From: a virus
IMG/VR virus record: IMGVR_UViG_2706795548_000001
Location: 1-29,763 of that record
Strand: one strand, 5' to 3'
DNA: 29,763 nt
Shown here: positions 12,805 to 29,720 of the stretch, piece after piece
Layout: the number at the start of each line of letters is the position of its first letter
Numbering within the stretch: position 1 is the first letter of the stretch
Position numbers and translations under genes: made by a program
The notes under the pieces: model-generated
Told to the model about the DNA's origin: nothing
Database searches by the model: none
What the model saw: the letters and a program-made list of their open reading frames with translations, nothing else

Positions 12805-12842
12805 ATTTTAAGTTGTTACGACAAAATAGATAACGATAAAAA

Positions 12843-13082: not shown

Positions 13083-13127
13083 ATTCAAGATATGTTTTTT
13101 TAAACTCTTTTTCCTAATGTGAAAATT

Positions 13128-14906
13128 ATGAGTAATTTACCCTATCCTTTAAAGTATAAGCTTCCACTTCAATATTTGTCAGTGCAAGATTGGAATAATT
13201 TTGTAAATGACCTTCTTCTAGTTTATAATTCTCCAAGTAGACTTTTAGCACAATACTACTCAAGTGGAAATTTGCAAAATTTGAATGGAGTTTTTGCAAA
13301 AACTCTAAATGTTGTGCAACTTTATGTAAATGGTTATGAAGCGTTATACAATCTCAAGAAAGTACTTGCGTATACTTTCGGGGGCGTTCTCTCATATTAT
13401 ACAACTTACCCGCCAATTAATTTTTCGAATGTTGAGCAATTAACAAAATTGCCAAGTTTTTATGTGCAAAAATACAATATACCAGTTGCAAAATATAAAC
13501 AAATAGTCGAAACATTTAATTTCATATTTGAAAAACATTTACCGCAAATTACAAAAACTATGCAAGTGTTAATTCCAAAAATTGCATATAGATATCTGCC
13601 TGCTTCAATTGCGGGCGGAATGATAACAGTCTCTGGTTCTCAGACATTATCTCAAATTTTGCAAAACGAATTTGCAATTTCAGATTTTTCGACATGGAAA
13701 GGTGTAACAATTGAAAATTTAAGCAATAATAATGTCATTATTAATAATGCGATTGTATTAATGCCAAAGCAATGCTTAAAACTTTCTGCTTCTTCACCTT
13801 CAGAAGTTACAATTACTGCTCAACAACCTGCATTAATTTCAACATTATTAGAATTTGGAGGTATACGTATTACTGCCTATGCGATAACGATAACAAACAA
13901 TCAGTCCGATCCAACACCTTCCAATTTTCAACAACTCCTAACGCTTAATCTGTCTGGTATAATTTCTTCACCTTCACAATTGTTGAATTTACAATTCTGC
14001 CAGGACATAAATTGCAATACTCAATTATACGCATGGATTGAATATTATAGCAGTAATTTATCGACAGTCTATGTTTGGGTTTTAATACCTGGCGGTATAC
14101 CCGCAAATTCTTCAATAACGATATATATGTTTGTAACAAATACAATTCAATACCCTTACACTGGGATAAATGCATATTATAACACACAATACGATAACGG
14201 TGCAAACGTTTTTGACGCCTACATGAATTTCATGGGGTCTAGTCCGATACCTTCAAATTATCAATCCTATTCGAGTATTTCTGGATATCCAACATTTGTT
14301 GCAGAAAGTGGTACAACTCCTGGTTATTTATATACGTTTGATAACGTTGGCAGTAGTCATGTTGACGCTTATATATCAGCACCGAAATCTGCAAGAACCC
14401 CAGAAGTCTTTGAAGGAATGGCTTACTATGACGGTAGTGCAGATGCGCAAGGTATTATGTTCTTTGGTGAGGGATCGTCAGGGTTTGTAGCAAGTCCAAA
14501 TATTGCAAATGCATATGTTCTCTCAGATAGCTGGGAAGTTGCATGGGACCCGTATTATAATTATGCGTATATCAGTGGCGGATCGTCAAATGATAATACA
14601 TATAGCGAAAGTCTCTTTACGTCAGACGGTTACAATTTCTATCAGGCTATCGCAACGTCAAGTGAGATTATTTTTAACGGTGCAACAGCAAGTAATCCAA
14701 CTACTCCATACGCACAACTTAATATTCAAAATGTTGCTAGTTACAGTGGAACAATTACAGTTTATGGCAATGTCGTAGGAACAATTGATAGTTCTGGAGG
14801 TGCAACTCACTATGGTTACTGGTATTATCTAAGAGCAAGAGCATATCCGCCAAATGGAGTAATGCCGACAAATACACAACCTCAGAAGATTACTGTCTAC
14901 ATTTGA
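13128..14906 (+). CDS. Minor virion structural protein (SIRV2 ORF564-like) with DUF2341-like and beta-rich domains
   Basis: QYLSVQDWNNFV N-terminus; ITITNNQ..TP..FQQLL...LYAWIE...VYVWV domain; RARAYPPNGVMP terminus; precedes the largest gene. Confidence 0.7.
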   Translation: MSNLPYPLKYKLPLQYLSVQDWNNFVNDLLLVYNSPSRLLAQYYSSGNLQNLNGVFAKTLNVVQLYVNGYEALYNLKKVLAYTFGGVLSYYTTYPPINFSNVEQLTKLPSFYVQKYNIPVAKYKQIVETFNFIFEKHLPQITKTMQVLIPKIAYRYLPASIAGGMITVSGSQTLSQILQNEFAISDFSTWKGVTIENLSNNNVIINNAIVLMPKQCLKLSASSPSEVTITAQQPALISTLLEFGGIRITAYAITITNNQSDPTPSNFQQLLTLNLSGIISSPSQLLNLQFCQDINCNTQLYAWIEYYSSNLSTVYVWVLIPGGIPANSSITIYMFVTNTIQYPYTGINAYYNTQYDNGANVFDAYMNFMGSSPIPSNYQSYSSISGYPTFVAESGTTPGYLYTFDNVGSSHVDAYISAPKSARTPEVFEGMAYYDGSADAQGIMFFGEGSSGFVASPNIANAYVLSDSWEVAWDPYYNYAYISGGSSNDNTYSESLFTSDGYNFYQAIATSSEIIFNGATASNPTTPYAQLNIQNVASYSGTITVYGNVVGTIDSSGGATHYGYWYYLRARAYPPNGVMPTNTQPQKITVYI

Positions 14907-14915
14907 CGTAACACA

Positions 14916-14943
14916 ATTCTTATAATGTATATTATGAATATTA
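14916..14943. promoter_or_regulatory. Core-gene upstream block, reverse orientation
   Basis: 23/28 to reverse complement of 12761..12788. Confidence 0.55.
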
Positions 14944-15005
14944 TCATTCAATATTGTGCAGTAGAATAAATTATAACTGAGATTGTAAATCTTACATAGA
15001 TAGAA

Positions 15006-18000
15006 ATGAGCTTCCTAGTTTCGGGACTAGAGGCAGTGGAGACATTCTTCTCTGACGAACTTACTGCTCTGGAAAATTTTACAAACTTTTTAGCATCTGA
15101 TGTTGTTTCATTTTTTGAAACTGTTTCAACAGATGTACAAAATTTCATTTCATTTTTAGCAACTGCAATTAGCGATATTCCAACTTTTATTCAACAAGGC
15201 GTATCCTATTTTGTGCAAGTCCTTCAAAATGTATTTTCTAATGTTGCATCTGCAGTAGATGGATTTGAACAATATGTCGCAAACGCATTACAAGGATTTT
15301 TCCAAGATGTTGCAAATCTAATGCAAGGGTTTTTGAATGCAATCTATGGATTTTTCTCAAATATTGCAAACGGTCTTGCTAATTTTGTAAATGTTGCAGT
15401 CTCTAATTACATACAAGGGTTTGGGGCAGTGGGGACATATGTGGGGCAGGCAATTCCACAAATTATAAATCAAATTACTCCAATTGTCGCCCCTTATCTT
15501 CTTGCAAGGATTTTGCCAGATGCGGTTGAAAGATTGGGAGAAATACTACCTGGAATTGAAATTGATTTATCCCCAGTCGGTTTAGGTGGGAAATTTGAAA
15601 TTAAATTTGGGGAGATTGCGAAAATGATAGGTGAGCCAATCGCTGACCTCATGGAAGAGATCTCTGGCGAAATAATGTCGTCTTTCAAAGAATTTTTGAA
15701 AGAACCGTTTATTTCTGATTTCAAAATTACAATAAGGCAAATTTTCAATAGTATCGGACTTGGGGATTTACCATTTGCGGACCCATCATATCGTGAGATT
15801 ACGTCATGGGTAGGGGCAAGGTCATTTCAAGAATTGAAAGATCATCTAAGGGAGACACTATTGTTGACGGGATACCCGGCGTGGTTCACTGACGCATTTT
15901 TAGAACCGCCGGCTGACGATTACATACCAAGAAATCCACTGTTTAGACCAGTTGCAATTCGTGACGTGATTGCCGGTGTTGAATATGGTCTTCTGCCTTC
16001 ATCAGCAATTGAACAATATGCAGAAAATAATTTGATAACGAAAAAAACTGCAAAATTAATGTATGTAAATCAGAATTTGAGGTTATTTCAGCGTGTAGTT
16101 GAGGAAGGAATAAGAGGTTTTATCATTCAACCCGACAAGGCTTACGACTTAATGATGTCTGGAAAAGATCTTGCAGGGAAAGATCTATTTACAAAATATT
16201 TCGAAATTGAGTACCAATTTGCAACACAAAGATTCGCAAAGCAAATTCTCAGAGCGCTTTTGTCAAGAGCATTATCGAATTTTGGAAGACCTTATGTAGA
16301 TATAAAGTATTTAGCTAAGACAACTGACGAAATTTATAAGCAACTAAATCTGCCAAAAGAAATTTCGACATTGTTTGAACAAATGATTGCAGAATCTCAA
16401 TTAATACAGTACAACGAGTTAATTTTCACATTTTTGAGGTCAAAAGCTGAAAAGGGGATATTTAACCAGGCAGATGTAGAGAAATTGTTAAAAGATTATA
16501 ATTTTAACGTTAGTGAGTCACTTTACATTTTACAAAATTATGTAGATTTACTTATAACAACTGAAGAAATACAATTAATCACGCAAAAACTGCAGAATTT
16601 CTTTATATCGGATAAAGACGCAGAAAAAGAATTGAAAAATTTAAAAGTAAACGATAATTATGCAAAACTTTTGATTGAGAGATATTACAACTTACAATTA
16701 TCAAAAGAAAAAGCAAACGTATATCTATCACTGCTCAAAAAAGGATATTACAATAGCCATGAGGCAAAAACTGTATTCAAAGCACTTGGTTATCCAACAA
16801 GTGTAATTGAAGAATTGTTAGATTTATATTCTCAAGAAATTGAGACAGAATTACAGATAAAGACAATAGAACAGAAAGCCCAAATGTTCCTACTGAATGA
16901 ACAAGAGATTGATACTGAGCTGAAAAAATTACATGTCTCTGACGCACTTATTCAAGAAATTGCGACTGAATATCTTCAAATTCCATTTTTGAAACAACAA
17001 GTTGACGTTTATACATCTCTGGTCAAAAAGGGATATATAAATAGTGAAGAGGCAAGAAGGATATTTTCTGCACTTGGTTTTAAACAAACGACAATTGAAC
17101 AATTGATCCCGCTTTATACGCAAGAAATACAAGTCGAAACAACAATTTCAACATATAAAGCGCTATTGCAACATTTTCTAATTGATGAAAAGACCGCTGA
17201 GCAAGAATTGAAAAAATTGCATGTCTCTGACGCATTAATTAATGAACTGTTGACTGAATATTACCAAGTCCCATTAACTGAAAAAATATTCAATATTTAT
17301 CTTTCTCTTCTAGAGAAAGGATATACGACAGTGGATACAATTAGCAAAATCCTAGGGGCAAAAAATGTTAATGCAACTGCACTTGCAGAAATTGCAAACG
17401 CTTACAATTACGAAATTGAAATTGAAAACTCCATCAAATATATACAATCACTGTTGAGAAATTTACTAATTGATGATAAAACTGCAGAACAAGAATTGAA
17501 AAAATTAGGCATTTCTGATGTGCTGACGAAAGCAATAATTGCAGAATATACGCCAGTTTTAGTAAATGTAAAGTCTGTTGCGCAAACAATTATAGAAGGT
17601 GCAATTTATAATGTAGGTAAAGTCCCAATTTCTGTATCAAATGTTGTACCAGAACTGAAGAAGTTAAACATTCCAGACAATCAAATTAACGCACTAATTA
17701 GCGAAATTGAAACACAAGTTGCGTTAGAAATTTGGAAAAAATATTTACCTACACTTTCTGACATTAAAACTGCGCTGACTTATAATTATCCAGTCGATAA
17801 ATTATTGCAATTGTCTCTCATACCTGCAGAGCTATATAATCTGCATGCTGATTTGACTAGATATGAACTTATCGCAAAAGAAGTGCAAAGCTTAAAGTCG
17901 ACTTACGAAAAATTGCTAACTTATAATGTTACAAATCCACAATTAGAACAAATGCTAAGACAATATGGAATTAACGATCAATTGTTGCAAGTTTTACAAT

Positions 18001-18353
18001 TGCAAGCACAACTAGAGAAAATATTAACTGCTTATGAAGAACTGTATCTAACGCCGTCAAAAGTACTGTCGATTGCTGAATATGTTTCAAACCCAGATCA
18101 ATTAATTCAAAAAGTATTTAGAGAATATAATGTACCGTCAGACTTACAGAATGTCTACTTGGAATATGCAAAAAATAGAAGATTGAGGACATACATCAAT
18201 GAGATAATATCAACAATTTCACTACTATTTGAGAAACAGAAAATATCTCTAGACCAGGCATTGCAATATCTGCAACAATTCAAAAAATACGGTCTCACTG
18301 ACGAAGAAATTGAATTAATCAAATTAAATTGGCAATTGAGGAGTGCGTATTAA
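15006..18353 (+). CDS. Terminal fibre protein (SIRV2 P1070-like), 1115 aa
   Basis: Largest ORF, helical, 11-aa Phe periodicity at N-terminus and 96-aa internal repeats. Confidence 0.8.
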   Translation: MSFLVSGLEAVETFFSDELTALENFTNFLASDVVSFFETVSTDVQNFISFLATAISDIPTFIQQGVSYFVQVLQNVFSNVASAVDGFEQYVANALQGFFQDVANLMQGFLNAIYGFFSNIANGLANFVNVAVSNYIQGFGAVGTYVGQAIPQIINQITPIVAPYLLARILPDAVERLGEILPGIEIDLSPVGLGGKFEIKFGEIAKMIGEPIADLMEEISGEIMSSFKEFLKEPFISDFKITIRQIFNSIGLGDLPFADPSYREITSWVGARSFQELKDHLRETLLLTGYPAWFTDAFLEPPADDYIPRNPLFRPVAIRDVIAGVEYGLLPSSAIEQYAENNLITKKTAKLMYVNQNLRLFQRVVEEGIRGFIIQPDKAYDLMMSGKDLAGKDLFTKYFEIEYQFATQRFAKQILRALLSRALSNFGRPYVDIKYLAKTTDEIYKQLNLPKEISTLFEQMIAESQLIQYNELIFTFLRSKAEKGIFNQADVEKLLKDYNFNVSESLYILQNYVDLLITTEEIQLITQKLQNFFISDKDAEKELKNLKVNDNYAKLLIERYYNLQLSKEKANVYLSLLKKGYYNSHEAKTVFKALGYPTSVIEELLDLYSQEIETELQIKTIEQKAQMFLLNEQEIDTELKKLHVSDALIQEIATEYLQIPFLKQQVDVYTSLVKKGYINSEEARRIFSALGFKQTTIEQLIPLYTQEIQVETTISTYKALLQHFLIDEKTAEQELKKLHVSDALINELLTEYYQVPLTEKIFNIYLSLLEKGYTTVDTISKILGAKNVNATALAEIANAYNYEIEIENSIKYIQSLLRNLLIDDKTAEQELKKLGISDVLTKAIIAEYTPVLVNVKSVAQTIIEGAIYNVGKVPISVSNVVPELKKLNIPDNQINALISEIETQVALEIWKKYLPTLSDIKTALTYNYPVDKLLQLSLIPAELYNLHADLTRYELIAKEVQSLKSTYEKLLTYNVTNPQLEQMLRQYGINDQLLQVLQLQAQLEKILTAYEELYLTPSKVLSIAEYVSNPDQLIQKVFREYNVPSDLQNVYLEYAKNRRLRTYINEIISTISLLFEKQKISLDQALQYLQQFKKYGLTDEEIELIKLNWQLRSAY
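16633..17525 (+). repeat. 288-bp (96-aa) tandem coding repeats
   Basis: ELKxLxVxD motif codons at 16633, 16921, 17209 and 17497. Confidence 0.85.
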
Positions 18354-18354
18354 A

Positions 18355-19578
18355 ATGTCTTACGTAAGCAAATATTCCATAATTAGCTCATCTGCATGGA
18401 ATCAAATTGTACAAAATGCACAATTGATTAACAGTATGTTGCAACAAACATTAAATACGATACAACAACTCGGTAATATAAATGCACAAGTAAACTATTC
18501 AAATTACCAAACACAACAACAAAATGCAATAAATATAATACAAAATCTTTTTAATTTCTTGCAAAATCCAACAATAATAACTCCTACTCCAAATATTCCA
18601 ACTGCAAGTCCTGGAATGACATTAACTGCAAACATGATGAATTCAATGACAAATGCAATACAAGAATTGTATAATTCAATAATGCCAACACCTTTAACAG
18701 AAATTTCAGAGGTTTTTGGAGGAGATATTGTAACCTCAGATCACTGGAATAAAATTGTTAAAGCAATAAATAAGCTAAAAAACATATTTAATGTAATAAA
18801 TGTGTCATTGGAAAACAACAAATTTGTACTAACAGAACCATATGCATTTATAGATCCTGAGGCAGTAGTTTCTGAAATTACTGCAGAATTTCTTGTTAAA
18901 AATCATATTTTATACATATTTATATATAACCCGCCAGGGAAATCAGGTACATGGTATATTTTCTCTGGTACAGAAAAAATAGATAATATTTTTATCGGTG
19001 GCGGTGTTGTAAACTTTAGACCAAGTGATTGCATAAAAATACAAAATATGTACTTATATGTGCATAATAGCAATGTATACCCATATGGCAATTCAAAAAT
19101 AGAAAATATAACAATTGTAGGCGATTTTGTTTCAATAGAACCAACAGATAATTCAATAATAGAAAATGCGCTAATTGTTGGAGATAACGGTACAATATCG
19201 CCAGATAATAATGCAATAATAAAAAGCGCTATAATAATTGGGAACAATCCTGGTGTTTCGCCGACCAATAATTCAATAATAGGAAATATAACAATTGATG
19301 GCAATAGCGGTAATATAGTGACATGGGATAACGCAACAATTGGAAATATGTTAGTAATGGGAAACAATAACTATATAACTACATATGATTCATCAGCAAT
19401 TCAAAATCTTTTCGTATGTGGGGAACAAAATAAACTTAATATATATCCTTCATCTTCAGTCCCGGGTTCAGGTATTATAAATCTCTATTTGTGCAATTCT
19501 AACAATACTGTCGGTAGCGGAGTACAAAATATAATACAAAATTCCCCAATATGCCAAGTTGTTTGCGCTTCAAGTTAG
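18355..19578 (+). CDS. Beta-helix (20-aa repeat) fibre or adhesin-like protein
   Basis: Three lts..wN..v..i-like motifs, then about 8 twenty-residue IxNxxIxGxN repeats; ATG 18355 follows the previous stop. Confidence 0.7.
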   Translation: MSYVSKYSIISSSAWNQIVQNAQLINSMLQQTLNTIQQLGNINAQVNYSNYQTQQQNAINIIQNLFNFLQNPTIITPTPNIPTASPGMTLTANMMNSMTNAIQELYNSIMPTPLTEISEVFGGDIVTSDHWNKIVKAINKLKNIFNVINVSLENNKFVLTEPYAFIDPEAVVSEITAEFLVKNHILYIFIYNPPGKSGTWYIFSGTEKIDNIFIGGGVVNFRPSDCIKIQNMYLYVHNSNVYPYGNSKIENITIVGDFVSIEPTDNSIIENALIVGDNGTISPDNNAIIKSAIIIGNNPGVSPTNNSIIGNITIDGNSGNIVTWDNATIGNMLVMGNNNYITTYDSSAIQNLFVCGEQNKLNIYPSSSVPGSGIINLYLCNSNNTVGSGVQNIIQNSPICQVVCASS

Positions 19579-19596
19579 CGTAAATCTGCCTACAAC

Positions 19597-19624
19597 ATGC
19601 TTATATTAAATATTATGAATATTG
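19597..19624. promoter_or_regulatory. Core-gene upstream block, reverse orientation
   Basis: 23/28 to reverse complement of 12761..12788. Confidence 0.55.
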
Positions 19625-19669
19625 CTATTGCGTATTCTGCTTAAAAATGTCCACATTAGGGATTAAAAT

Positions 19670-20140
19670 ATGTTAGACAAATATTTCCACGACTTGGGTT
19701 GCGACTATTGGAATGAATATCCACATTCATACGGTCTTCTAAATGTCTACAACAAGACGATACAAATTGTAGGTGCAGATTGCGGATCATCAGCTTTGTA
19801 TTTTTTGTTGAGAGGCGCAAAATATGTAATTCAGTATGAAAAAGACCAACAACTAAGAGAAAAATGGAAAGAAGTTTGCACACATTTCGACATTTGTCAA
19901 AAGGCTGAGATGAGGAGTGAGTGGACTGGGCAGTATGACAATGTCGACATTTTCATTATGGATTGTGAGGGATGTGAAGAAATTCTAGATGTTTCTCAGC
20001 TAAAAAAGTATGAGCAATTCTGCGTGGCGGTTCACGATTGGACAAAAAACCGAATAGAATTGCTGAGAAAACTTGAAGGTTTGACATTTACATATGTTAC
20101 AGATGATGGTAGAGAAATTGTATTGTGCAAATTGAGGTGA
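19670..20140 (+). CDS. SAM-dependent methyltransferase (SIRV ORF158b-like, FkbM-like)
   Basis: Motif I VGADCGSSALYF; MDCEGCE. Confidence 0.85.
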   Translation: MLDKYFHDLGCDYWNEYPHSYGLLNVYNKTIQIVGADCGSSALYFLLRGAKYVIQYEKDQQLREKWKEVCTHFDICQKAEMRSEWTGQYDNVDIFIMDCEGCEEILDVSQLKKYEQFCVAVHDWTKNRIELLRKLEGLTFTYVTDDGREIVLCKLR

Positions 20141-20846: not shown

Positions 20847-21905
20847 TTGATTATCTATTACGTTTACCCAATGCATCATGATGTGAGCTTTAAATTTGTT
20901 GCACAAGAACATATAAAAATGCTAAAAAGCAAGTATAAAGTTTACGATATCCCAGAATTGAATTTTTTTCAATTTACGCCGTATGGCAAACCGGTAACAT
21001 TTATCCATCCCTTTTTCTATGGGATGTTGAATTGGAATGATGTACAGTGGACATTTTTCAAAATGTACAGATCAAAAGTATCAAAGATTATAGGAGTAGA
21101 AGTTGCCGATAGCGATAGAATTGCGGAAAAGTACATCAACATTGCGAATTCTTGGGCTGACGCACTAGTTGTAAATTCCAAATGGTCTTATGACGCTTAC
21201 ATAAATTCAGGGCTTAAAATTCCAATTTTTATTGTACCCCACAATTACGATCCAAAACTTGAGGCTGACGATAAGCAACTTAAAGTTTCACCAGAAATTA
21301 AAAAAATTGAAGAGATAAAAAACGAAAAGAAGATTAAGATAATTCTATTTTTCTCATGGCATAGCGGTTATAGAAAGGGAGACGATTTATTTCAGAAGAT
21401 AGCAAGACAAGTACAAAAAGAAAGAAATGACGTATATTTTATTGTAAAAAGCGCAACTCCAAGACAAGATTTAATGGATTTGAAAATGTTCAATATAACT
21501 GGAGTAATTCCATTTGACGATATCGTCAAATTGTATAGGATTGCAGATCTTCTACTTTTGCCTTCAAGAGGCGGATCATTTGAGCTTAACGGTCTTGAAG
21601 CTTTAGTCTCTGGTATCCCTGTCGTTGCGCCAGATGAAGGACCCTGGACTGAATATTTCCCACCTTCACTGCGACATTTCTTAGCAAAAACTGTAAATCA
21701 TCCAATAGTTTTACCAGATAATCCAATTCATATCGGCAAAGGAGTAGAAATTTCAATTGATGACGCAGTAGAGAAAGCGCTTAGGATATTGGATAACATA
21801 GAAGAAGAAAAAGCAAAAGTGAAAAATGAAATTGAGTTTTTCCGCAATAACTACAGTTTTAACGCCGTAAAGCAAAAATTACTTAATGTAGTCGAAAAGT
21901 GTTGA
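20847..21905 (+). CDS. GT-B glycosyltransferase, GT4-like (SIRV2 ORF356 family)
   Basis: YPMHHDVSFKFVA, YRKGDD and PSRGGSFELNGLEALVSGIP; start uncertain (TTG 20829 or 20847). Confidence 0.9.
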   Translation: MIIYYVYPMHHDVSFKFVAQEHIKMLKSKYKVYDIPELNFFQFTPYGKPVTFIHPFFYGMLNWNDVQWTFFKMYRSKVSKIIGVEVADSDRIAEKYINIANSWADALVVNSKWSYDAYINSGLKIPIFIVPHNYDPKLEADDKQLKVSPEIKKIEEIKNEKKIKIILFFSWHSGYRKGDDLFQKIARQVQKERNDVYFIVKSATPRQDLMDLKMFNITGVIPFDDIVKLYRIADLLLLPSRGGSFELNGLEALVSGIPVVAPDEGPWTEYFPPSLRHFLAKTVNHPIVLPDNPIHIGKGVEISIDDAVEKALRILDNIEEEKAKVKNEIEFFRNNYSFNAVKQKLLNVVEKC

Positions 21906-22502
21906 ATTTTTTTGCATTAAATATTTGTAAATTTCATCAAACATTTGTTTAACTTTATCTGCCTCATAAAAATATCTGCGTTTTTCCATAAAATATCCGC
22001 CGACATCTAATGCGGGAAATTGATACCTTATCACAACTTTGAGATCATTCCAACCAGAAGCGCCTAAATACCACGCTTTATCTGGTTCAATTCTTCTAAA
22101 AAAATCGTCTAGAGTATAATCGTGAAGCCCTGGCGTGGCTGAGTAACCGTAAAAATATCTAAAACCGTTTTCTTTCAATTGATCTACAATTTCCAAATCA
22201 GAGTCAAGTGAATGAATTGGAACAATAAAAGTTATTAAACGTAAAACATCTAAATTTGCAATTTTCTCAACTTTTGTTAAAGGAGTATAATCTGGATATA
22301 ATGCAATCTTTATCTCTCTGATTTTTTTAACTAAAAGTTTGACATATTGAATATAAGCATTTGGTCCGCCATGAATTAAAAATTCTTTATCGTCAAAAAA
22401 TTCAGGGTAAATATACATATTTGGATAACGTATGTTGTACTTTCTCATAGTTTTAATGTGTGGACCTTTTGCAACTCCGACAATAGGGTAATTCTGAGAC
22501 AT
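21879..22502 (-). CDS. TGT/DpdA-like TIM-barrel transglycosylase homologue
   Basis: ALYPD, VPIH, FYGY, WYLG and ALDV elements in the order expected for the TGT barrel; no clear DSG motif. Confidence 0.5.
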   Translation of the reverse strand: MSQNYPIVGVAKGPHIKTMRKYNIRYPNMYIYPEFFDDKEFLIHGGPNAYIQYVKLLVKKIREIKIALYPDYTPLTKVEKIANLDVLRLITFIVPIHSLDSDLEIVDQLKENGFRYFYGYSATPGLHDYTLDDFFRRIEPDKAWYLGASGWNDLKVVIRYQFPALDVGGYFMEKRRYFYEADKVKQMFDEIYKYLMQKNSTLFDYIK

Positions 22503-22511
22503 AGTACATTC

Positions 22512-23765
22512 TTATTCTGGCGGTATTTCTTTAAATATCTCATCAACTGGAATACCTTGCATTTTTCTAATGACGTATGTCAGAATTCCAACAGTTGGTG
22601 GTATAAATATTGTTAAAATGTCGAAATATAGATTTCCAGTAAACATCTCTGACCTAAATTGTAAATTCACAAGTGAAGAGTACAAAACCATACTGGCAGT
22701 AAAAATTAGCACAATTGCAGATAATACCGCAGTCGGCAAAATTCTTCTGTCTTGCTTTATGAATTTCAAACTTGCAAACGCAACAATTAAATAATTCCAA
22801 AATATAAACCATAAATCGTCCACAATTAGGCTAACGTGGAATCCCAGATAATTCTCTATAAAATTGAAAATTTCTGCAATCGCAAAACTGACCAAAATTG
22901 AATTTGTCGGCGTGCCATTTTTAACATCTGCCAAGAAAGAAGGCAAAACTCTATCAAACGATAGTGCAAAGACAACTCTAGTTGTTGCCCCCGCATTTAT
23001 TAACGCATATAGCATATACCACGTTAGCGCAGATAATGCAACAATTTCTAAACTTAGATTTACGCCAACGATAGCTATCAAAATTGCAAATATTGCAGTC
23101 ACACTGTATGCAATAAAATACCCCGCAAGTAAACTTTTATTAATTTTTTGCATTTCACCTGCAAAATATGATGGAGAATTTATGAAAGCATATAAGGACA
23201 TTACAAAAAGCGCAGTCATAGTGAGAGTATTTGTATTTATCTCGAGTGTCGCAGGTAAAGTCACATGATTAAGATTAGTCGCAATCATAATTATAATACC
23301 AAGAATTTGGAATAACACTAGTCCAACAATTGCTTTAGCGTAATATTTCACTTTTGACGCTAACAAATAAATTAAGCCAATATAAACTGTTGTAACTGCA
23401 AATAGATCTAAATTTGATAAATAAAAGCGTATAAATTCTAGTGTCGCAAGTACTGGCATAGACATCCAAAATGACGTCAAAATTGCCATACCATTTATCA
23501 CACCGACAATTCCGCCAAAAGCTCTTGAAACATAAACATAATCTCCAGTAGATCTTGGAATTAATCTATTTAGCAAGTAGTAGTTTAGCATTAATGGAAT
23601 TCCTAAAACTGACGCTAAAAGAATTGCTAAAAATGCATCTGCGTGAATAAGAGAAAGGACATAGGCAACTGCCCCTGCGGGTCCTAAGAAAGCGAAATTT
23701 AACGAAAAAACATCCAATGGCTTAAATTCTTTAATTAATCCAGTTGACTGTCTTAGGAATTTCAT
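22512..23765 (-). CDS. APC-superfamily amino-acid permease
   Basis: FLRQSTGLIKE start, about 11-12 TM segments, FAGE and RVVFALSFDRVLP motifs. Confidence 0.88.
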   Translation of the reverse strand: MKFLRQSTGLIKEFKPLDVFSLNFAFLGPAGAVAYVLSLIHADAFLAILLASVLGIPLMLNYYLLNRLIPRSTGDYVYVSRAFGGIVGVINGMAILTSFWMSMPVLATLEFIRFYLSNLDLFAVTTVYIGLIYLLASKVKYYAKAIVGLVLFQILGIIIMIATNLNHVTLPATLEINTNTLTMTALFVMSLYAFINSPSYFAGEMQKINKSLLAGYFIAYSVTAIFAILIAIVGVNLSLEIVALSALTWYMLYALINAGATTRVVFALSFDRVLPSFLADVKNGTPTNSILVSFAIAEIFNFIENYLGFHVSLIVDDLWFIFWNYLIVAFASLKFIKQDRRILPTAVLSAIVLIFTASMVLYSSLVNLQFRSEMFTGNLYFDILTIFIPPTVGILTYVIRKMQGIPVDEIFKEIPPE

Positions 23766-23786: not shown

Positions 23787-24635
23787 TTACATTTTTAAAC
23801 TTTTCTTCTTCTCCAGATACTTTCTAATAATTCCAGTATTTCTCCTTAATGCAGTATCAACAACTCCACATTTTCTATCAATATCTGGCTGAGTTATTGC
23901 ATATTTGTCTTGCTTAGCGAGAAAATACAAAATTGTAGTTGCAACAATTTTCGGGCTTTTCCCAGATAAAATGCCAGACTGCTCAATTTCTTTCGCAAAG
24001 TTAAGCGCTTTTTCTATTAATTCAGTTGGTAAACCAAGTCGTAAACCGCAACCTTTTATAAAATCTTCAACTGTAAAATTTGGAATTTTTTCGTCAAAAT
24101 TCTTTAAAACCTCAAAGTATGCCCCGATAAATCGCTTTGGTATGACCTTATATATCTTCCAAATTTTTTCAATATACTCGTCAAATGGCATCAAAATTCT
24201 CAATTTGCGATATGCCATATAGATAGAAACAAAGACAATAAGTTCAGAACCTAAGTATCTCAAATGTTTATTTTTCCACAACTTTTGCAAAATTCTACTT
24301 GCTTCTTGTGTTATAGTTTCATTACCTCCAATTTTTTGAACTGCCGTCGATAAAAATCTTAAAGCGTCAAGTAATGGCTTATTACTCACCGGATAAAGAC
24401 TTGAAATACTAACCTTTTTGGGTTTAATACCAACAGTCGGTAAAAACCCTGAATTAACAAAGACGTTTGGATTTATTGGAAAAGCTCTTGCCCTTTCCAC
24501 AAACTGCTCATTGTTGTAGGCTCTCCAGTCCATACCTTCATCTACAACTTTATCTTCTAGAACTTCTCCAGTCTCAGTACAAATATACTCTCCTCTTTCG
24601 GTATCAAACACGATTTTGTCAGATGGACAGTTCAT
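23787..24635 (-). CDS. tfb: Viral transcription initiation factor B (TFB/TFIIB) homologue
   Basis: CPSDKIVFDTERGEYICTETGEVLED..DWRAY ribbon and reader; two cyclin repeats with GKSP. Confidence 0.93.
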   Translation of the reverse strand: MNCPSDKIVFDTERGEYICTETGEVLEDKVVDEGMDWRAYNNEQFVERARAFPINPNVFVNSGFLPTVGIKPKKVSISSLYPVSNKPLLDALRFLSTAVQKIGGNETITQEASRILQKLWKNKHLRYLGSELIVFVSIYMAYRKLRILMPFDEYIEKIWKIYKVIPKRFIGAYFEVLKNFDEKIPNFTVEDFIKGCGLRLGLPTELIEKALNFAKEIEQSGILSGKSPKIVATTILYFLAKQDKYAITQPDIDRKCGVVDTALRRNTGIIRKYLEKKKSLKM

Positions 24636-24693
24636 ACGAAAATCTCAATTCGATTACATTTTTATTTCTTGCCAAGAACTACAATTTCAAACT

Positions 24694-24721
24694 TAATATT
24701 CAAAATATTATAAATATGCAT
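24694..24721. promoter_or_regulatory. Core-gene upstream block before tfb
   Basis: 24/28 identical to 12761..12788. Confidence 0.65.
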
Positions 24722-24938: not shown

Positions 24939-25283
24939 TCACCTCACTCTTTCAATATAGTAAAGATCATATCCAATTTTTTGTAATTCATCTTCACTTT
25001 GAATTACATGCCCCTCTGGCAGTCTTTGCCTTAGCACAATCGCAATTGCGCTATCACCAACTTTGAAATAAATTGGAATTCTATTTGTCTCGACTGGCAT
25101 TCCTAATAAAGCAGACATAACACTGGCAGTTGCAGAATGCCCAATTGCCGAAATTACTTGTTGTGCATTATCTACAATATCTCTTGCCTCACTTATACTA
25201 ATTCTTTTTATTTTAAATTCTGCCTCATTATCTTGGATTGGGATAATTAAACTATTTAGGAGGTACAAGACCACTCGACTCAC
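24939..25283 (-). CDS. acrIII-1: AcrIII-1 viral ring nuclease (DUF1874, STIV B116 / SIRV1 gp29 family)
   Basis: 114 aa with signature AIGH, NR and QRLPEG residues. Confidence 0.9.
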   Translation of the reverse strand: MSRVVLYLLNSLIIPIQDNEAEFKIKRISISEARDIVDNAQQVISAIGHSATASVMSALLGMPVETNRIPIYFKVGDSAIAIVLRQRLPEGHVIQSEDELQKIGYDLYYIERVR

Positions 25284-25298
25284 CCTAAACGAAACTTG

Positions 25299-25319
25299 AT
25301 GACAACATTTTTAAATCTT
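25299..25319 (-). promoter_or_regulatory. Class A promoter
   Basis: AAGATTTAAAAATGTTGTCAT on minus strand before acrIII-1. Confidence 0.8.
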
Positions 25320-25323
25320 AAAA

Positions 25324-26166
25324 TCAAACAACTCTACAAAATTGCTTTTTCTTACATTCTCCAATTATATCTTCAAATTTAACACCGTCTATTTCTTCAT
25401 TATCGCCGTAATCTTGTAAAATTACTTTGTACATATTGTCTTCAACAACAAATTCAAAAACTTTGTAAAACCACGCCGTATGTCTTCCAGTATCGGCTTC
25501 TAGTGCTATCCAACCAATATTTGCCTCCCTCTTCCCTTCAAAGTCAACTATTTGTCTGCCTCTTGGAATAAATACTGCATTCTGCTTAAGTTTATTGTAT
25601 AAATCTAAATCATCATAATTGAAAATAAAAGTATCATGACCTAGAATTTTCCAATACACTTCCCATAACGCAAAGTGATCAATTATATCTGGCAAATCTA
25701 AGATATTGAAATTATCAATATTGACAACATAAGGATTTGCAATCTCAAATTTTTCAATTGAGCTCAACTTAGTTGCTAAATCGTTGGCAAATACTTTATT
25801 TAGTTTTGGACCATCAATAGTGTAATAATTGTAAAGTATAAGTCTATTATTGGAAATCACGCCATAAATCGTTGACTTATCGAATTTCCATAAAATGTAA
25901 TCAGTCACTATCATGTCTTGAACTGAAGGGGCATCTGGACCTCTTGGATGAGTATGCAAAACGGCATAAACGGTCTCTGGCATATACTTTTGCAAAGGAC
26001 TGAGATCTGCACTGCCTTTGTCCCCCTGGTAATAATCGGAGAACCACTCACCTAAAACAATTAGGTATTCCCTATCTGTAGACTTTGACTTTTGGTATAC
26101 ATCTTTCAAAAAATCTAAATTTTTAAAAATAGTAAGAACATTACTTCTGACTTTTGATCTAGACAT
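25324..26166 (-). CDS. JAB/JAMM (MPN+) zinc metallo-isopeptidase with C-terminal extension
   Basis: N-terminal REY glutamate and exact HxH-x7-S-x2-D motif (HTHPRGPDAPSVQD). Confidence 0.8.
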   Translation of the reverse strand: MSRSKVRSNVLTIFKNLDFLKDVYQKSKSTDREYLIVLGEWFSDYYQGDKGSADLSPLQKYMPETVYAVLHTHPRGPDAPSVQDMIVTDYILWKFDKSTIYGVISNNRLILYNYYTIDGPKLNKVFANDLATKLSSIEKFEIANPYVVNIDNFNILDLPDIIDHFALWEVYWKILGHDTFIFNYDDLDLYNKLKQNAVFIPRGRQIVDFEGKREANIGWIALEADTGRHTAWFYKVFEFVVEDNMYKVILQDYGDNEEIDGVKFEDIIGECKKKQFCRVV

Positions 26167-26187
26167 ATATCACCAATAAATCGTTAT

Positions 26188-26208
26188 ATGCCAACATTTA
26201 TCAAGATT
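26188..26208 (-). promoter_or_regulatory. Class A promoter variant
   Basis: TTGATAAATGTTGGCAT on minus strand, then GGTGA RBS. Confidence 0.6.
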
Positions 26209-26247
26209 TCACAGAAAATAAGAAATAGTAGAATTAATATTACGAAT

Positions 26248-26270
26248 GTGAAAAAAATAGTCCAAAAAAA
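26248..26270 (-). terminator. Repeated T-rich intergenic motif
   Basis: Overlaps a 27-bp direct repeat shared with 28968..28994. Confidence 0.5.
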
Positions 26271-26336
26271 TAAGTAAAAACAAAAATAGAGAGGTTAAAA
26301 GAAGGAAAGAGAAAAGAAGGAAAAGATAAAAAAAAG

Positions 26337-26681
26337 TTATTTTACCTTTATCCAACCTTTGTCAAAAGTAAAGACGTAAACTTCAATTTTTCCATCGTAC
26401 TCACTATAGTACGCCTCTGTTTCTTTTACAACAACTACCGGGTCAGTCTTAGGTATAATAATCTCAGTTGTGATTTCTTGTCTTTCGTCTTTTGAAATCG
26501 GAACTATGTCAGCGTCCCCAAACACAATTTTAACCCTATCATATAAGTCTTCTCTGAAATACTTCTCTATTTCTAACAAGTATTTTGCTTCTGGTTGCAT
26601 ATTTTTTGCCTCATTTAAGAGTTTTGCAATTTGATCTTCATTTAATTCTTCTACTTTTATTTCTTCTTTTTCTTGACTCAT
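26337..26681 (-). CDS. Hypothetical acidic beta-rich protein, terminal array
   Basis: ATG 26681 (track TTG 26696); IIPKTDPVVVV...YVFTFDKGW motif recalled from crenarchaeal filamentous viruses. Confidence 0.75.
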   Translation of the reverse strand: MSQEKEEIKVEELNEDQIAKLLNEAKNMQPEAKYLLEIEKYFREDLYDRVKIVFGDADIVPISKDERQEITTEIIIPKTDPVVVVKETEAYYSEYDGKIEVYVFTFDKGWIKVK

Positions 26682-26685
26682 TCTC

Positions 26686-26744
26686 CCACTCCTCAATATA
26701 TAGTTGTAATCTTAAGTATTTAAATCTTTCCACCATGAATTCAC
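26686..26744 (-). promoter_or_regulatory. Class B early promoter
   Basis: GTGAATTCAT-N6-AAGATTTAAATA. Confidence 0.8.
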
Positions 26745-26835
26745 TCAGAACCCCGTTTGCATATCTCATATTGTCAATATTAGCATTATACATTGTACAT
26801 TGAATTTAGCAAACAACAGAAATAGTATCTGTAAA

Positions 26836-26858
26836 ATGAAAAAAATTATTCAAAAAAA
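26836..26858 (-). terminator. Repeated T-rich intergenic motif
   Basis: Plus strand ATGAAAAAAATTATTCAAAAAAA. Confidence 0.5.
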
Positions 26859-26909
26859 TAAATAATGCAAAAAACAGAAGAAATAAGAAATAGAAAAGTG
26901 AAAAAAAGA

Positions 26910-27200
26910 TTAGGTTAAAGATTGATAAAGGATCTTTGCTATTTCTTCTCCCATTGGCGTTAACTCAACGTATCTCCTATACCGCCATGTCTCTTTAAAA
27001 AAGATCTTCTTGGTCTTTACTAAACCTTTACTCTCCAAACTTGTTGTATACTTGGATGTGCCGAATATTTCGTGTAACTCCCGGGTCCAAACTAACTGTT
27101 CCCCGTACCTAATTTTTGAATCGAGTAAAAAAATAAGAAGCATTTTTTCCTTATACGTTAATTCTGGTACCTTTTGCACTTCCATCACACTTACCACCAT
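26910..27200 (-). CDS. Winged helix-turn-helix protein (MarR/PadR-like)
   Basis: LESKGLVK...YVELTPMGEEIA wing and terminal helix pattern. Confidence 0.75.
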   Translation of the reverse strand: MVVSVMEVQKVPELTYKEKMLLIFLLDSKIRYGEQLVWTRELHEIFGTSKYTTSLESKGLVKTKKIFFKETWRYRRYVELTPMGEEIAKILYQSLT

Positions 27201-27248
27201 TATATATTTTAAACTGAGACTATTTAAATCTTCCTATCTTGAAATCAG
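27190..27248 (-). promoter_or_regulatory. Class B early promoter
   Basis: CTGATTTCAA-N6-AAGATTTAAATA; ATG 28 nt after TATA start. Confidence 0.75.
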
Positions 27249-27291
27249 TTGCAAGTAGTCAATTTGCACAACTTCAATTAAAATCTCAAAC

Positions 27292-27315
27292 TTGAGAAAA
27301 ATTAGGCAAAAAAAT
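27292..27315 (-). terminator. Repeated T-rich intergenic motif
   Basis: Plus strand TTGAGAAAAATTAGGCAAAAAAAT. Confidence 0.55.
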
Positions 27316-27378
27316 ATGCAATAAACAAAATGAGAGATTTAAAACAAAAGGTCTAAAAACAAAAAAATAGGGTAACTT

Positions 27379-27645
27379 TTATTCGAAAAGCAATTTGCCA
27401 AGAACTTCATCTGGGATTCTCATTACCGCCCAGAGTGATTTAACTCCTAACATGTAGTCACTGGTATATGTGCTATCTAGTAATTGACCATTTGAATCGT
27501 ACCAGTCCAAAAGTATATATTCGTCTTTGCCAGTTGGTTCAAGTATAATGCACTCCAGAACTTCTCCTTTGCGGTTCAACTTCCACACTACAATTTTCTT
27601 GTCTATATGTTGTTTCAAGTATTTGAAACTTTTTTTACGTGCCAT
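27379..27645 (-). CDS. Hypothetical 88-aa protein (paralogue of 27834..28100)
   Basis: 19/88 ungapped identities with its neighbour. Confidence 0.8.
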   Translation of the reverse strand: MARKKSFKYLKQHIDKKIVVWKLNRKGEVLECIILEPTGKDEYILLDWYDSNGQLLDSTYTSDYMLGVKSLWAVMRIPDEVLGKLLFE

Positions 27646-27648
27646 TTT

Positions 27649-27707
27649 TCTTTCCCCGTATTACTTTTCGTAACTGGAGTATTTAAATCTTTCCTTCATA
27701 AAATCAT
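27649..27707 (-). promoter_or_regulatory. Class B early promoter
   Basis: ATGATTTTAT-N6-AAGATTTAAATA. Confidence 0.75.
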
Positions 27708-27762
27708 GAAGTTTAACAGTTGAAAACGTAAATAGTTGCACAATAGAAATAGTATATCAAAA

Positions 27763-27787
27763 ATGAAAAAAATTAGGCAAAAAAATA
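27763..27787 (-). terminator. Repeated T-rich intergenic motif
   Basis: 27743..27785 matches 24744..24786 at 40/43. Confidence 0.55.
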
Positions 27788-27833
27788 GCTATCACAAATT
27801 ACAAGAAATAAAAAATGAGGAAAACGAAAAAAA

Positions 27834-28100
27834 TTATTCCCAGATCATCTCGCCTAAATCTTCTTCTGGTAATTCTTTTAATTCTGCAAATGAAGAAACT
27901 CCAAAGTATTTTAGTTCTGTTTTAGAACAATACTCAAACCACCCCTCATCATTAAAAAAGCAAACATAAACCGTTTTAGAATCCCCCTTGTCAAGTCGAA
28001 TTTCTACAAATTCCAACAACTTACAATTACCGTATTTGTAAACTGTTATTTTATTCTTTCCAATTTCTTTTATGTATTCAATCAACCCTTCTTTCACCAT
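27834..28100 (-). CDS. Hypothetical 88-aa protein (paralogue of 27379..27645)
   Basis: Shared GVxS...P.E.LG...E C-terminus. Confidence 0.8.
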   Translation of the reverse strand: MVKEGLIEYIKEIGKNKITVYKYGNCKLLEFVEIRLDKGDSKTVYVCFFNDEGWFEYCSKTELKYFGVSSFAELKELPEEDLGEMIWE

Positions 28101-28148
28101 ACTACTTTACGCAATCAGAGTATTTAAATCTTTCTTTAATGAAATCAC
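28090..28148 (-). promoter_or_regulatory. Class B early promoter
   Basis: GTGATTTCAT-N6-AAGATTTAAATA; 21 bp identical to 537..557. Confidence 0.8.
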
Positions 28149-28203
28149 TAAGATTATCTATCAACAACTAGAATTTTCAAACCATAGATTTAATATCTCT
28201 AGC

Positions 28204-28230
28204 ATGAGAAAAATTATGCATTAAAAAATT
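28204..28230 (-). terminator. Repeated T-rich intergenic motif
   Basis: Adjoins stop of 28229..28888. Confidence 0.55.
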
Positions 28231-28888
28231 ACAAAATTTTCATATTTAAAATCTTTGCAACATCTTTGTCAATTTGTTCCAAACTATCTTTAAAAAAGCA
28301 AGTAACATATCTCTTAATCTCAGGGGAATAGCATAATGTCGACTCTTTGAGCAAATTTGTTGTCACAGACATGTACATAATATCGTCTTTGTCTTTCTTC
28401 TCACCCATAGCAAAAAATCTGTATAAGTACCATTCTTCTAGTGTGCGGTCATACTTGCCAAATAATGGAAAGTGCCAAATTCTATACTTAAGATCTTCCC
28501 ACAATTCTGGATCTATTTCAGTTTTGTCACTTTGCTTTATTTTATCAACAACTTCGTCAAAATACAAAATAGCCAGGACTCTCTTTATTTTATATTGTGT
28601 AAGGACTACAGTTTTTGGTTTATTGTTCCAATAATAAACACTCACCATGTAGTAATACTTTGCATTATTTTCTAAATATGCATTAATCATTTTTTCAATA
28701 TTGATATTGAACAACGAAAAGAATATCATTTTCCTATATTCACTCTCTGGTTCCATATTTCTCAATTTTTTATCCTCATTATCAACATTAAAGGATTTTA
28801 TATCGTATGCAGAAAGATTTGGTTCATCAATTATTTTTTTAATTTCATTTTCGCTCAATTCGTTTGTTTCCAACTGATACCACCGCAT
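28229..28888 (-). CDS. Hypothetical 219-aa protein, terminal array
   Basis: Track ATG 28909 lies inside the class A motif; ATG 28888 is 28 nt after the TATA start. Confidence 0.8.
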   Translation of the reverse strand: MRWYQLETNELSENEIKKIIDEPNLSAYDIKSFNVDNEDKKLRNMEPESEYRKMIFFSLFNINIEKMINAYLENNAKYYYMVSVYYWNNKPKTVVLTQYKIKRVLAILYFDEVVDKIKQSDKTEIDPELWEDLKYRIWHFPLFGKYDRTLEEWYLYRFFAMGEKKDKDDIMYMSVTTNLLKESTLCYSPEIKRYVTCFFKDSLEQIDKDVAKILNMKIL

Positions 28889-28899
28889 CTCAAAACTTG

Positions 28900-28920
28900 A
28901 TGCCAACATTTTTAAATCTT
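28900..28920 (-). promoter_or_regulatory. Class A promoter
   Basis: AAGATTTAAAAATGTTGGCAT on minus strand. Confidence 0.8.
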
Positions 28921-28983
28921 TAATTCAGCCAAACTACATACTAATAGCTAAAATTTTAAAATTGTACAATTAATATTACGAAT

Positions 28984-29008
28984 GTGAAAAAAATCAGGCA
29001 TAAAAAAA
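28984..29008 (-). terminator. Repeated T-rich intergenic motif
   Basis: Plus strand GTGAAAAAAATCAGGCATAAAAAAA. Confidence 0.5.
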
Positions 29009-29062
29009 GATAACATGCAAACCAGAAAATTGAGCAAAAATTAGAGACAGGTTAAAAAAAGA

Positions 29063-29659
29063 TTAATATCTTGCGTAGTACATTAAATAAATCCCAGGGG
29101 GCAGACCAATACTATAACAACTATAGGTTATCATACTATCCTCCTTAATTACTATACCAACAACATCCGGCGGTGGCTCGGCATATATATATTGTTCAGC
29201 AATCCTTTCTGGAACTTGTATAATCTGGTACTTTCCAATTAAATCAAAAGTAGGATAGTGCGTTCTTTGATCTTCCATTTGCCCATTTTCGTTTCCGTCA
29301 ACGAATTTGCAGTTTGCTATTTTCATCAGGATCAATCTGAATTTACTGTATGTCCAATCCTCTACAAACACTTCACCAGGCATCCAGTCTTGGTAATTCT
29401 CCATGACTATCTTTGCAATACGCAGTGGGTTTTGATAAATGAAATCATGCTTTGAGCTAACGCCGAATTGTTGCAGTTGATATGACCTTACTTTATGTGG
29501 GTAGAAAACGTATACTTTGCCTTCTGGCGCTATTTCCCATTCCGATATTGGTCCCTCAGCAACTATATGCATCCTCTCAACTATCTGATCTCCCTTCTGC
29601 CCATATAAAAACAACTCTTTTTGATTTGCACCATGAATTCTCTTATACCAATATATCAT
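29063..29659 (-). CDS. Hypothetical 198-aa protein; C-terminus resembles AcrIIIB1-family tail
   Basis: IGLPPGIYLMYY vs ISLGPGIYLLVH in 1099..1773. Confidence 0.75.
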   Translation of the reverse strand: MIYWYKRIHGANQKELFLYGQKGDQIVERMHIVAEGPISEWEIAPEGKVYVFYPHKVRSYQLQQFGVSSKHDFIYQNPLRIAKIVMENYQDWMPGEVFVEDWTYSKFRLILMKIANCKFVDGNENGQMEDQRTHYPTFDLIGKYQIIQVPERIAEQYIYAEPPPDVVGIVIKEDSMITYSCYSIGLPPGIYLMYYARY

Positions 29660-29661
29660 AC

Positions 29662-29720
29662 CTTATCCCCATCTTACATTTTGAACTTTAAGCTTTTAAA
29701 TCTTTCCATCTTGATTTCCC
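29662..29720 (-). promoter_or_regulatory. Class B early promoter (overlaps right ITR)
   Basis: Mirror of 28..86; identical through the TATA box. Confidence 0.7.

Follow-up and report, generated by a model that had tools for sequence, protein, structure and literature searches.

According to the prevailing view, archaeal viruses depend entirely on the TATA-binding protein (TBP), transcription factor B (TFB) and RNA polymerase (RNAP) of their hosts, which they modulate with small repressors or activators. What, then, would a virus do with a TFB of its own? The question is raised by the gene tfb, which codes for a homologue of TFB and TFIIB and lies at positions 23787–24635 (minus strand; 282 amino acids and a stop codon, ATG start) of the IMG/VR virus record IMGVR_UViG_2706795548_000001. 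This complete virus record of 29,763 bp is referred to as the window. The domain architecture of the gene product, its conservation pattern, the purifying selection acting on it and the promoter context of the gene are described in the following. We hold with moderate confidence that the product is a functional accessory alternative initiation factor for viral promoters, and we propose that it would serve as an accessory booster or bias and not as an essential switch.

A divergent TFB in a group of rudiviruses

The window shares approx. 83% nucleotide identity with Saccharolobus solfataricus rod-shaped virus 1 (SSRV1) and Metallosphaera rod-shaped virus 1 (MRV1) over 75–85% of the first 25 kb and thus belongs to a rudivirus of the genus Hoswirudivirus. 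Neither a TBP nor an RNAP gene is encoded in the complete 29.8-kb genome, so the viral TFB would have to retarget the host enzyme. The open reading frame (ORF), the Pfam domains, the predicted fold and an alignment of residues 3–269 with residues 18–291 of human TFIIB agree on the identity of the protein, which had been proposed before in a sequence-only reading of the window. Pfam recognised a Zn_Ribbon_TF domain (PF08271; cut-off 29) in residues 2–39 with 41.4 bits and, in residues 190–265, a TFIIB repeat (cut-off 23.6) with 40.9 bits, while the first cyclin repeat was missed. The family phrog_20431 matched the full length (residues 1–282, 399 bits), and the NCBIfam TFB model PRK00423 scored 105.4 bits, which is below its cut-off of 384. 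Judged by the latter score, the protein is a divergent member of the TFB family and not an equivalog. Its AlphaFold2 model, calculated from 128 sequences, reached a predicted local distance difference test (pLDDT) of 90 and a predicted template-modelling score (pTM) of 0.80. It comprises a three-stranded ribbon and two five-helix cyclin repeats with altogether ten core helices, and Foldseek matched it to TFIIB and TFB. The core superimposed on P. woesei TFBc from TBP/TFB/DNA crystal structures with template-modelling (TM) scores of 0.82 (1AIS_B) and 0.81 (1D3U_B) and a root-mean-square deviation of 2.4–2.9 Å.

Orthologues were found in MRV1 (gp27, 77% identity), SSRV1 (gp30, 64%), a Logan metagenome contig (55%) and ARV3 (gp32, 45%), so that five full-length rudiviral proteins are available including the one of the window, plus a fragment of 102 amino acids. 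An exhaustive search of 1.8 billion representative proteins returned one cluster only below E 1e-30. The proteins of the three isolates MRV1, SSRV1 and ARV3 resemble the one studied here in length, locus, ribbon, linker deletion, helix-turn-helix (HTH) pattern and promoter, and differ at HTH positions 260–261 and in the C-terminal tail. In these isolates, the gene is annotated as 'putative transcription initiation factor B'. A transcription initiation factor was listed among the genes exclusive to Italian rudiviruses (Baquero et al. 2020), and later papers restate that certain rod-shaped viruses encode a TFB. The family is hence already annotated in three related viruses and named in published work without a domain or functional analysis, and the window is a new genome carrying a tfb of this known family. 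A capsid gene but no TFB is found in SIRV2, in ARV1, which comes from the same Pozzuoli site, and in the remaining rudiviruses of the collection, which makes tfb a lineage-specific accessory.

If tfb were a captured host gene in decay, or one without a function in transcription such as a cyclin-fold scaffold, this would account for the strong divergence seen in the NCBIfam score (105 versus 384 bits), the cyclin repeat missed by Pfam and a stem of 1.9 substitutions per site in the phylogenetic tree. However, the ORF is intact in five viruses whose hosts span three genera, the promoter is conserved, and so is the synteny across the window, MRV1, SSRV1 and ARV3. The ratio of non-synonymous to synonymous substitutions (dN/dS), determined by the Nei-Gojobori method between viral pairs, was 0.14–0.32 overall, and residues for the contacts with RNAP, TBP and DNA are retained. 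Decay into a pseudogene was rejected due to these ratios and the intact ORFs, and we regard the whole explanation as highly improbable. By region, the dN/dS amounted to 0.03–0.12 for the ribbon, 0.12–0.37 for the first and 0.17–0.46 for the second cyclin repeat and 0.16–0.49 for the HTH, values that are rough given the shortness of the regions. The ribbon is the most constrained part. As both the RNAP-facing and the TBP/DNA-facing end are under purifying selection, the protein looks like a bridging factor, which argues against mere decoy function and against decay of the gene. The core would be dispensable in a protein that only distracts RNAP, and so would the ribbon in one that only blocks promoters, so that selection at both ends speaks for an alternative initiation factor.

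From the zinc ribbon to the recognition helix

Conservation is distributed unevenly along the protein. Positions at which 60% or more of 123 cellular homologues have the same residue were scored, and counted as kept if at least four of the five viral orthologues carry that residue. By this measure, residues 1–50 with ribbon and B-reader kept 16 of 18 positions. The TFB1-type zinc ribbon (residues 1–35; 24531–24635, minus strand; pLDDT 88–90) has, according to the alignments, only two cysteines, C3 and C19. The positions of the second and fourth cysteine are taken by D6 and T22, exactly as in the pattern C-P-x-D ... C-T-E-T of Sulfolobales TFB1. Identity to host TFBs was 66–80% over these 35 residues compared to 18–27% over the cyclin repeats and the HTH. 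The close likeness of the ribbon to TFB1, including the degenerate cysteines, had been noticed from the sequence alone and holds. Between viral and host ribbons, synonymous sites are saturated (proportion of synonymous differences, pS, 0.63–0.83); the likeness is therefore maintained by selection, and the idea that the ribbon was recently acquired from a host gene, by transfer or recombination, was rejected. The ribbon is thus apparently shaped by long-term selection to fit the host RNAP, and with this strong constraint, docking of the viral TFB on the host RNAP is probably retained.

The helix and the loop of the B-reader (residues 36–52; 24480–24530, minus strand) were assigned by their match to the M. 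jannaschii TFB, in which mutagenesis revealed the sensitive clusters E78-W79-R80 and R90-C91-R92-V93-G94 (PMC3025549). The viral counterparts D36-W37-R38 and R48-A49-R50-A51-F52 are found at the same 12-residue spacing with the tryptophan and three arginines kept; across the viral orthologues, the first cluster reads D/E-W-R and the second R-x-R. The glycine is lost and replaced by F, K or E, and full activity of the M. jannaschii protein was obtained with the wild-type residue at this position only (PMC3025549). B-reader and linker had been called divergent together in the sequence-only reading. This applies only in part to the B-reader, where W37, R38, R48 and R50 stand at the exact spacing and only the glycine has gone; the large change lies in the linker.

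The remodelled B-linker (residues 53–85; 24381–24479, minus strand; from alignments, pLDDT 61–79) lacks about 19–20 residues of the B-linker helix in comparison to every cellular paralog aligned, and only a short low-confidence helix at residues 77–80 remains. Just one of seven consensus positions is kept in residues 51–85, which span the end of the reader loop and the linker. In place of the cellular strand GLSTxI, an invariant GFLPT is present, which is part of the motif NSGFLPT...KPK shared by the entire viral clade. The B-linker helix is needed for efficient promoter opening in cellular TFBs (PMC13502027). Its deletion keeps alive the idea of a dominant-negative TFB that would compete with TFB1 for the RNAP dock and/or for TBP on TATA boxes, form complexes unable to open DNA and cause a late shut-down of host and perhaps also of viral early transcription. 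Such a role would agree with the lost reader glycine, with the ribbon as the best-conserved part, with the loss of the loop reading the downstream TFB recognition element (BREd) and of canonical HTH residues, and with a co-regulation of tfb with core and not early genes, as outlined below. Repression of the host RNAP by archaeal viruses is moreover known in another form, e.g. ATV RIP. On the other hand, an inert plug would need neither W37, R38, R48 and R50 near the active site nor the invariant NSGFLPT. The virus depends on the same RNAP for its own genes, for which this model offers no escape, and the divergent reader and linker of P. furiosus TFB2 lower activity but do not abolish it. A dominant-negative function is in our view unlikely.

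The first cyclin repeat (residues 86–181; 24093–24380, minus strand; mapped via human TFIIB, pLDDT 91–98) kept 10 of 27 consensus positions. For the second repeat, whose helices 1'–3' cover residues 182–246 (23898–24092, minus strand; within the Pfam TFIIB repeat at 190–265, pLDDT 94–98), the count was 7 of 15. R143, the equivalent of human R169, is invariant in the viral orthologues, and K167, which corresponds to human K188, is present in four of five. The human exchange R169E abolishes binding to TBP-TATA, and the same source covers K188 (PMC6004067). Y127-L128 occupy the position of human G153-R154, a loop that reads the BREd (PMC4529316). The loss of this GR loop as a viral peculiarity was rejected since the host TFB2 is devoid of it as well.

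The HTH of the second repeat reads the TFB recognition element (BRE) (PMC13502027; PMC4581349). In the viral TFB (residues 247–270; 23826–23897, minus strand), the recognition helix is altered to GVVDTALRRNT compared to the cellular GVTEVTVRNRY. The string given for it in the sequence-only reading, TQPDIDRKCGVVDTALRRN, is literally found as residues 248–266. The consensus of the 123 cellular homologues is TQxEIAxxxGVTEVTxRNRY, with (T/S)(E/Q)VT(I/V)RNRY being invariant in TFB1, TFB2 and a fourth TFB paralog of Acidianus and largely kept in the TFBs of YNP viruses. To call the helix rewritten is appropriate for positions 260–262 and 265–267 and goes too far for T248, Q249, I252, V258 and R264, which are kept in the protein of the window. 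Only 3 of 12 HTH consensus positions are kept in at least four of the five viral orthologues, and six are lost in all of them. The BRE-reading helix thus appears to deviate from a motif which all host paralogs share without exception.

The six rudiviral recognition helices read VVDTALRRNT, VTASALRMNT, VTGAGLRKNA, VSDGAIRKNK, VTVIGLREQI and ITESALRKNT. They share a small residue (A/G) followed by Leu or Ile, Arg, any residue and Asn, the latter in five of six sequences. R264 is invariant across the viral sequences and aligns with human R286, while positions 260–261 are hypervariable and T261 aligns with human V283. In human TFIIB, V283 and R286 are reported to contact the BRE, V283 as a base contact, in work ascribed to Lagrange 1998 and Tsai & Sigler 2000. 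Identity within the HTH was 33–75% among viral orthologues compared to 24/24 between the TFB1 of Saccharolobus and Acidianus. The new semi-conserved pattern (A/G)LRxN and the invariant R264 indicate that the change is not random decay. A sigma-like switch and a dominant-negative role, both suggested in the sequence-only reading and the latter with a conjectured shut-off of CRISPR transcription, are plausible, and the retained R264 in the recognition helix and R143 as the main TBP-contact arginine would temper either of them.

Promoters and proposed function

A putative tfb promoter, GCAAGA followed by AATAAAAA (24659–24672, minus strand), ends 23 nt before the ATG, which suggests a leaderless arrangement. 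The form GCAAGA-AATAAAAA-TGTAATC is conserved in SSRV1 and MRV1, occurs as a variant in ARV3 and resembles the promoters of core genes. Host TFB is described to prefer G at -6 and A at -3 (cited in PMC11065993), with which the putative promoter would be compatible. A 28-bp block, TAATATTCAAAATATTATAAATATGCAT, is located 59–86 nt upstream of tfb (24694–24721, plus strand). Copies with 23–28 of 28 matches were found at 4241, 6665, 12761 and 24694 on the plus and at 14916 and 19597 on the minus strand, and the block is common to tfb and five core promoters, namely, those of the ATPase, capsid, 482-aa/79-aa, fibre and methyltransferase genes. This sharing is compatible with co-regulation of tfb with core genes and with positive feedback.

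The block also bears on a BRE-independent adaptor, in which the HTH would no longer read sequence and a viral protein bound to the block would recruit the viral TFB and subsequently RNAP. The orientation-independent placement of the block upstream of six core promoters, one of which belongs to tfb, the hypervariable base-facing positions 260–261, several ribbon-helix-helix and HTH regulators encoded by the virus and known archaeal activators recruiting TBP or TFB, e.g. Ptr2 and TFB-RF1, are in line with it. Still, the conservation of R264 and of the (A/G)LRxN pattern suggests that DNA contact persists, the partner protein is only hypothetical, and the block could equally be the operator of a repressor. 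The model furthermore overlaps with an alternative initiation factor, and taken separately we find it improbable, somewhat more so than a dominant-negative TFB.

The gene lies at the border of the core module and the right-terminal array, after a glycosyltransferase gene near the right end. The terminal gene cassettes are marked by AAGATTTAAA, which occurs 14 times compared to 0.9 expected, mostly within 1–3200 and 25200–29700. Terminal genes carry a GAAAGA-TTTAAA motif that is lacking from tfb, and an early viral promoter of the GAAAGATTTAAA type is found e.g. upstream of 26910–27200. Early and anti-defence genes of SIRV2 have a strong BRE-TATA promoter (PMC11065993), the consensus of which is matched by the terminal-gene motif of the window. 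With a promoter of the core-gene type and a location outside the terminal early cassettes, tfb would fit poorly with an early switch.

Core promoters were compared between orthologous genes of four TFB-positive and two TFB-negative rudiviruses and complemented with k-mer counts, a set of few and related genomes. In Hoswirudivirus, they often have the form T-rich-GC-TTAWAAA (A-rich TATA, GC-TTAWAAA-TGT, at 6326–19670 of the window), while their counterparts in ARV1 and SIRV2 show the T-rich form TTTATTTWTGTC. Core promoters of the window include those for MCP (6746) and at 7231 and 19670. GCTTAWAAA was counted 7, 5 and 4 times in the window, SSRV1 and MRV1, respectively, at 1.2–1.9 expected (approx. 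3–4 times), but only once in ARV3 (1.7 expected), not at all in ARV1 (0.7 expected) and once in SIRV2 (3.6 expected). The orthologous core promoters of the TFB-less ARV1 and SIRV2 are likewise devoid of a consensus BRE. Since these viruses express their core genes nonetheless, the viral TFB is accessory and not required.

Taken as an alternative initiation factor, the viral TFB would dock on the host RNAP with its conserved ribbon and B-reader, taking the place of TFB1, while its two cyclin repeats would bind host TBP on TATA boxes. [quoted passage not shown] Polymerase would in this way be channelled to viral promoters with poor host-type BREs, i.e. those of core and structural genes and of tfb itself. 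A viral DNA-binding protein at the shared 28-bp block may assist, and the host's TFE may make up for the absent B-linker helix. We infer the binding to RNAP and TBP, any change of promoter preference and the target genes. In favour of this reading, the TBP anchor R143 is invariant and the tryptophan and arginines of the B-reader stand at their exact spacing. There are also cellular precedents: Sulfolobus TFB2 has its own regulon and positive feedback on its own gene, and P. furiosus TFB2, with divergent reader and linker, shows weak but real initiation that is rescued by TFE (PMC13502027). From the retained reader residues and these precedents, an alternative initiation factor emerges as the likeliest reading.

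Several observations weigh against it. The helix needed for efficient promoter opening is deleted from the linker, and the glycine of the B-reader loop is replaced. A conserved threonine of the first cyclin repeat contacts the second TBP glutamate (PMC7221094), and the viral orthologues have Pro or Ser at this position (human T176; P150 in the protein of the window). The variation at HTH positions 260–261 between close relatives could mean relaxed constraint and not a new specificity. Most rudiviruses do without a TFB, and no promoter element clearly specific to TFB-encoding viruses was found among the four TFB-positive and two TFB-negative rudiviruses. GCTTAWAAA is not enriched in ARV3, the three genomes with enrichment are ∼83% identical and thus not independent, and SIRV2 and ARV1 have GC-TATA promoters as well. 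For these reasons, the motif was not counted as evidence for a new BRE, and its enrichment in three TFB-positive genomes is a weak lead.

The viral TFB might also be a genuine specificity factor for promoters and as such the archaeal counterpart of phage sigma factors. With the interfaces to host RNAP and TBP kept, it would then read a different upstream element via its rewritten recognition helix or be recruited via the 28-bp block, and divert the host polymerase from TFB1 promoters to viral core genes. We consider this possible but doubtful.

Origin, neighbourhood and wider meaning

Sulfolobales genomes encode TFB1 with a two-Cys ribbon, TFB2 with a four-Cys ribbon and TFB3 of ∼182 amino acids (host open frames 182–208 aa). 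In a maximum-likelihood tree, the five viral TFBs formed one clade with 100/100 support. It was placed inside the TFB1-type group, in a polytomy that also comprised TFB1, some metagenomic proteins and the Acidianus paralog, and apart from TFB2 and the TFBs of the YNP1/YNP2 viruses. This placement points to a TFB1-type lineage with a two-Cys ribbon as the source of the viral gene, which is fixed in Hoswirudivirus. The Acidianus paralog (291–294 aa; L125:8856-9740 in an A. hospitalis metagenome-assembled genome; L003, L004) combines a ribbon of the TFB1 type with a short linker and a canonical HTH, and was not found in the Saccharolobus, Stygiolobus and Aramenus genomes searched. It was rejected as a donor borne by a mobile genetic element because of its chromosomal housekeeping context, and the tree singled out no donor. 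The metagenomic relatives P0024 and P0007 did not help with the origin either, being encoded on short contigs with orphan neighbours or next to an Sso7d-like gene. P0024 is a TFB1-type TFB on a 5.6-kb metagenome contig (L123:1-5597) with 357x coverage, whose flanking genes match neither Pfam nor phage families; the contig may represent a further mobile element that encodes its own TFB.

The TFBs of the YNP1/YNP2 viruses and of a related IMG/VR contig (L083:4155-5177, L086:5998-7002, L084:5998-7008) have a chimeric look. Their linker, first cyclin repeat (KRxx...LYYSCQ) and HTH are TFB2-like, and their ribbon segment is TFB1-like (IFDxERGEYxDTETGEV) with zero cysteines. As this lineage is separate, a TFB1-type ribbon is found in two independent viral TFB lineages. 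The TBP frames of four Sulfolobales genomes (L116:1459-2049, L117:1201-1791, L118:1456-2055, L119:1204-1788) have no ATG, GTG or TTG ahead of the first TBP repeat. The earliest such codon would cut approx. 27 residues, and these genomes probably use ATT or ATA as start of TBP.

Directly upstream of tfb, within the right-terminal array, a gene related to STIV B116 (DUF1874; AcrIII-1 ring-nuclease family, 106 bits) is located at 24939–25283, followed at 25324–26166 by the gene for a protein of 280 amino acids that carries a JAMM-type HxH...S..D motif (PHROG 'protease'). On the other side, the last tfb codons contain a purine-rich BRE and TTTAAAAA (23792–23805) for the downstream amino-acid permease gene (22512–23765, phrog_8289). 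The latter and a gene for a 207-aa protein (region 21879–23765) are present in the window and SSRV1 and missing from MRV1 and ARV3, in both of which the glycosyltransferase gene is the immediate neighbour of tfb.

The viral protein shares with Sulfolobales TFB1 the two-Cys ribbon, the WR and RxR motifs of the B-reader, two cyclin repeats, the HTH fold and the TBP-contact arginine. It differs in its overall sequence (approx. 29% identity), the missing N-terminal extension and B-linker helix and the replacement of GR loop, YR motif and VTVRNRY. The TFB1 of Saccharolobus and that of Acidianus share 90% identity, while divergence is fast among the viral proteins. As a second TFB directing a promoter subset, it would resemble the cellular alternatives, i.e. 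Sulfolobus TFB2 and TFB3, the Acidianus 291-aa protein and P. furiosus TFB2. These paralogs, however, all keep the canonical recognition helix and the B-linker helix. Sulfolobus TFB2, with its four-Cys ribbon, also lacks the GR loop and does not group with the viral TFB, and TFB3 with ∼182 amino acids differs from the 282-aa viral protein with both cyclin repeats and HTH, which is not of the TFB3 type. The TFBs of the YNP1/YNP2 viruses and related IMG/VR contigs are likewise virus-encoded and TFB1-like in the ribbon segment, but form a separate lineage with a largely canonical, TFB2-like core, linker and HTH and a ribbon without cysteines.

Phage sigma factors offer an analogy as virus-encoded initiation factors, since the viral TFB could retarget a multisubunit RNAP as well. 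The second-repeat HTH on the BRE has a structural analogue in sigma region 4 at the -35 element (PMC4581349), although there is no sequence relationship between sigma factors and the viral TFB beyond a proposed deep homology. TFIIB-like proteins of giant viruses, of which BFVD holds many homologues, are functional analogues, but these viruses supply an RNAP of their own and often a TBP as well (PMC7221094).

The value of the finding is tempered by the existing annotation of the gene family and its mention in several papers. The predictions are directly testable, since tractable hosts are in use for the culture of SSRV1 and MRV1. A general factor encoded by the virus would be a different strategy from small repressors and activators, and if the viral TFB is indeed a promoter-specificity factor, it would mark the first time that a virus is seen to reprogram a eukaryote-like basal transcription machinery by replacing a general factor. 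With the interfaces for polymerase and TBP kept, the DNA-reading helix changed and the B-linker helix missing, the protein resembles a natural separation-of-function variant of TFB/TFIIB. In a system that is related to eukaryotic Pol II, it could reveal which parts BRE reading and the B-linker play in DNA opening and in the choice of promoters.

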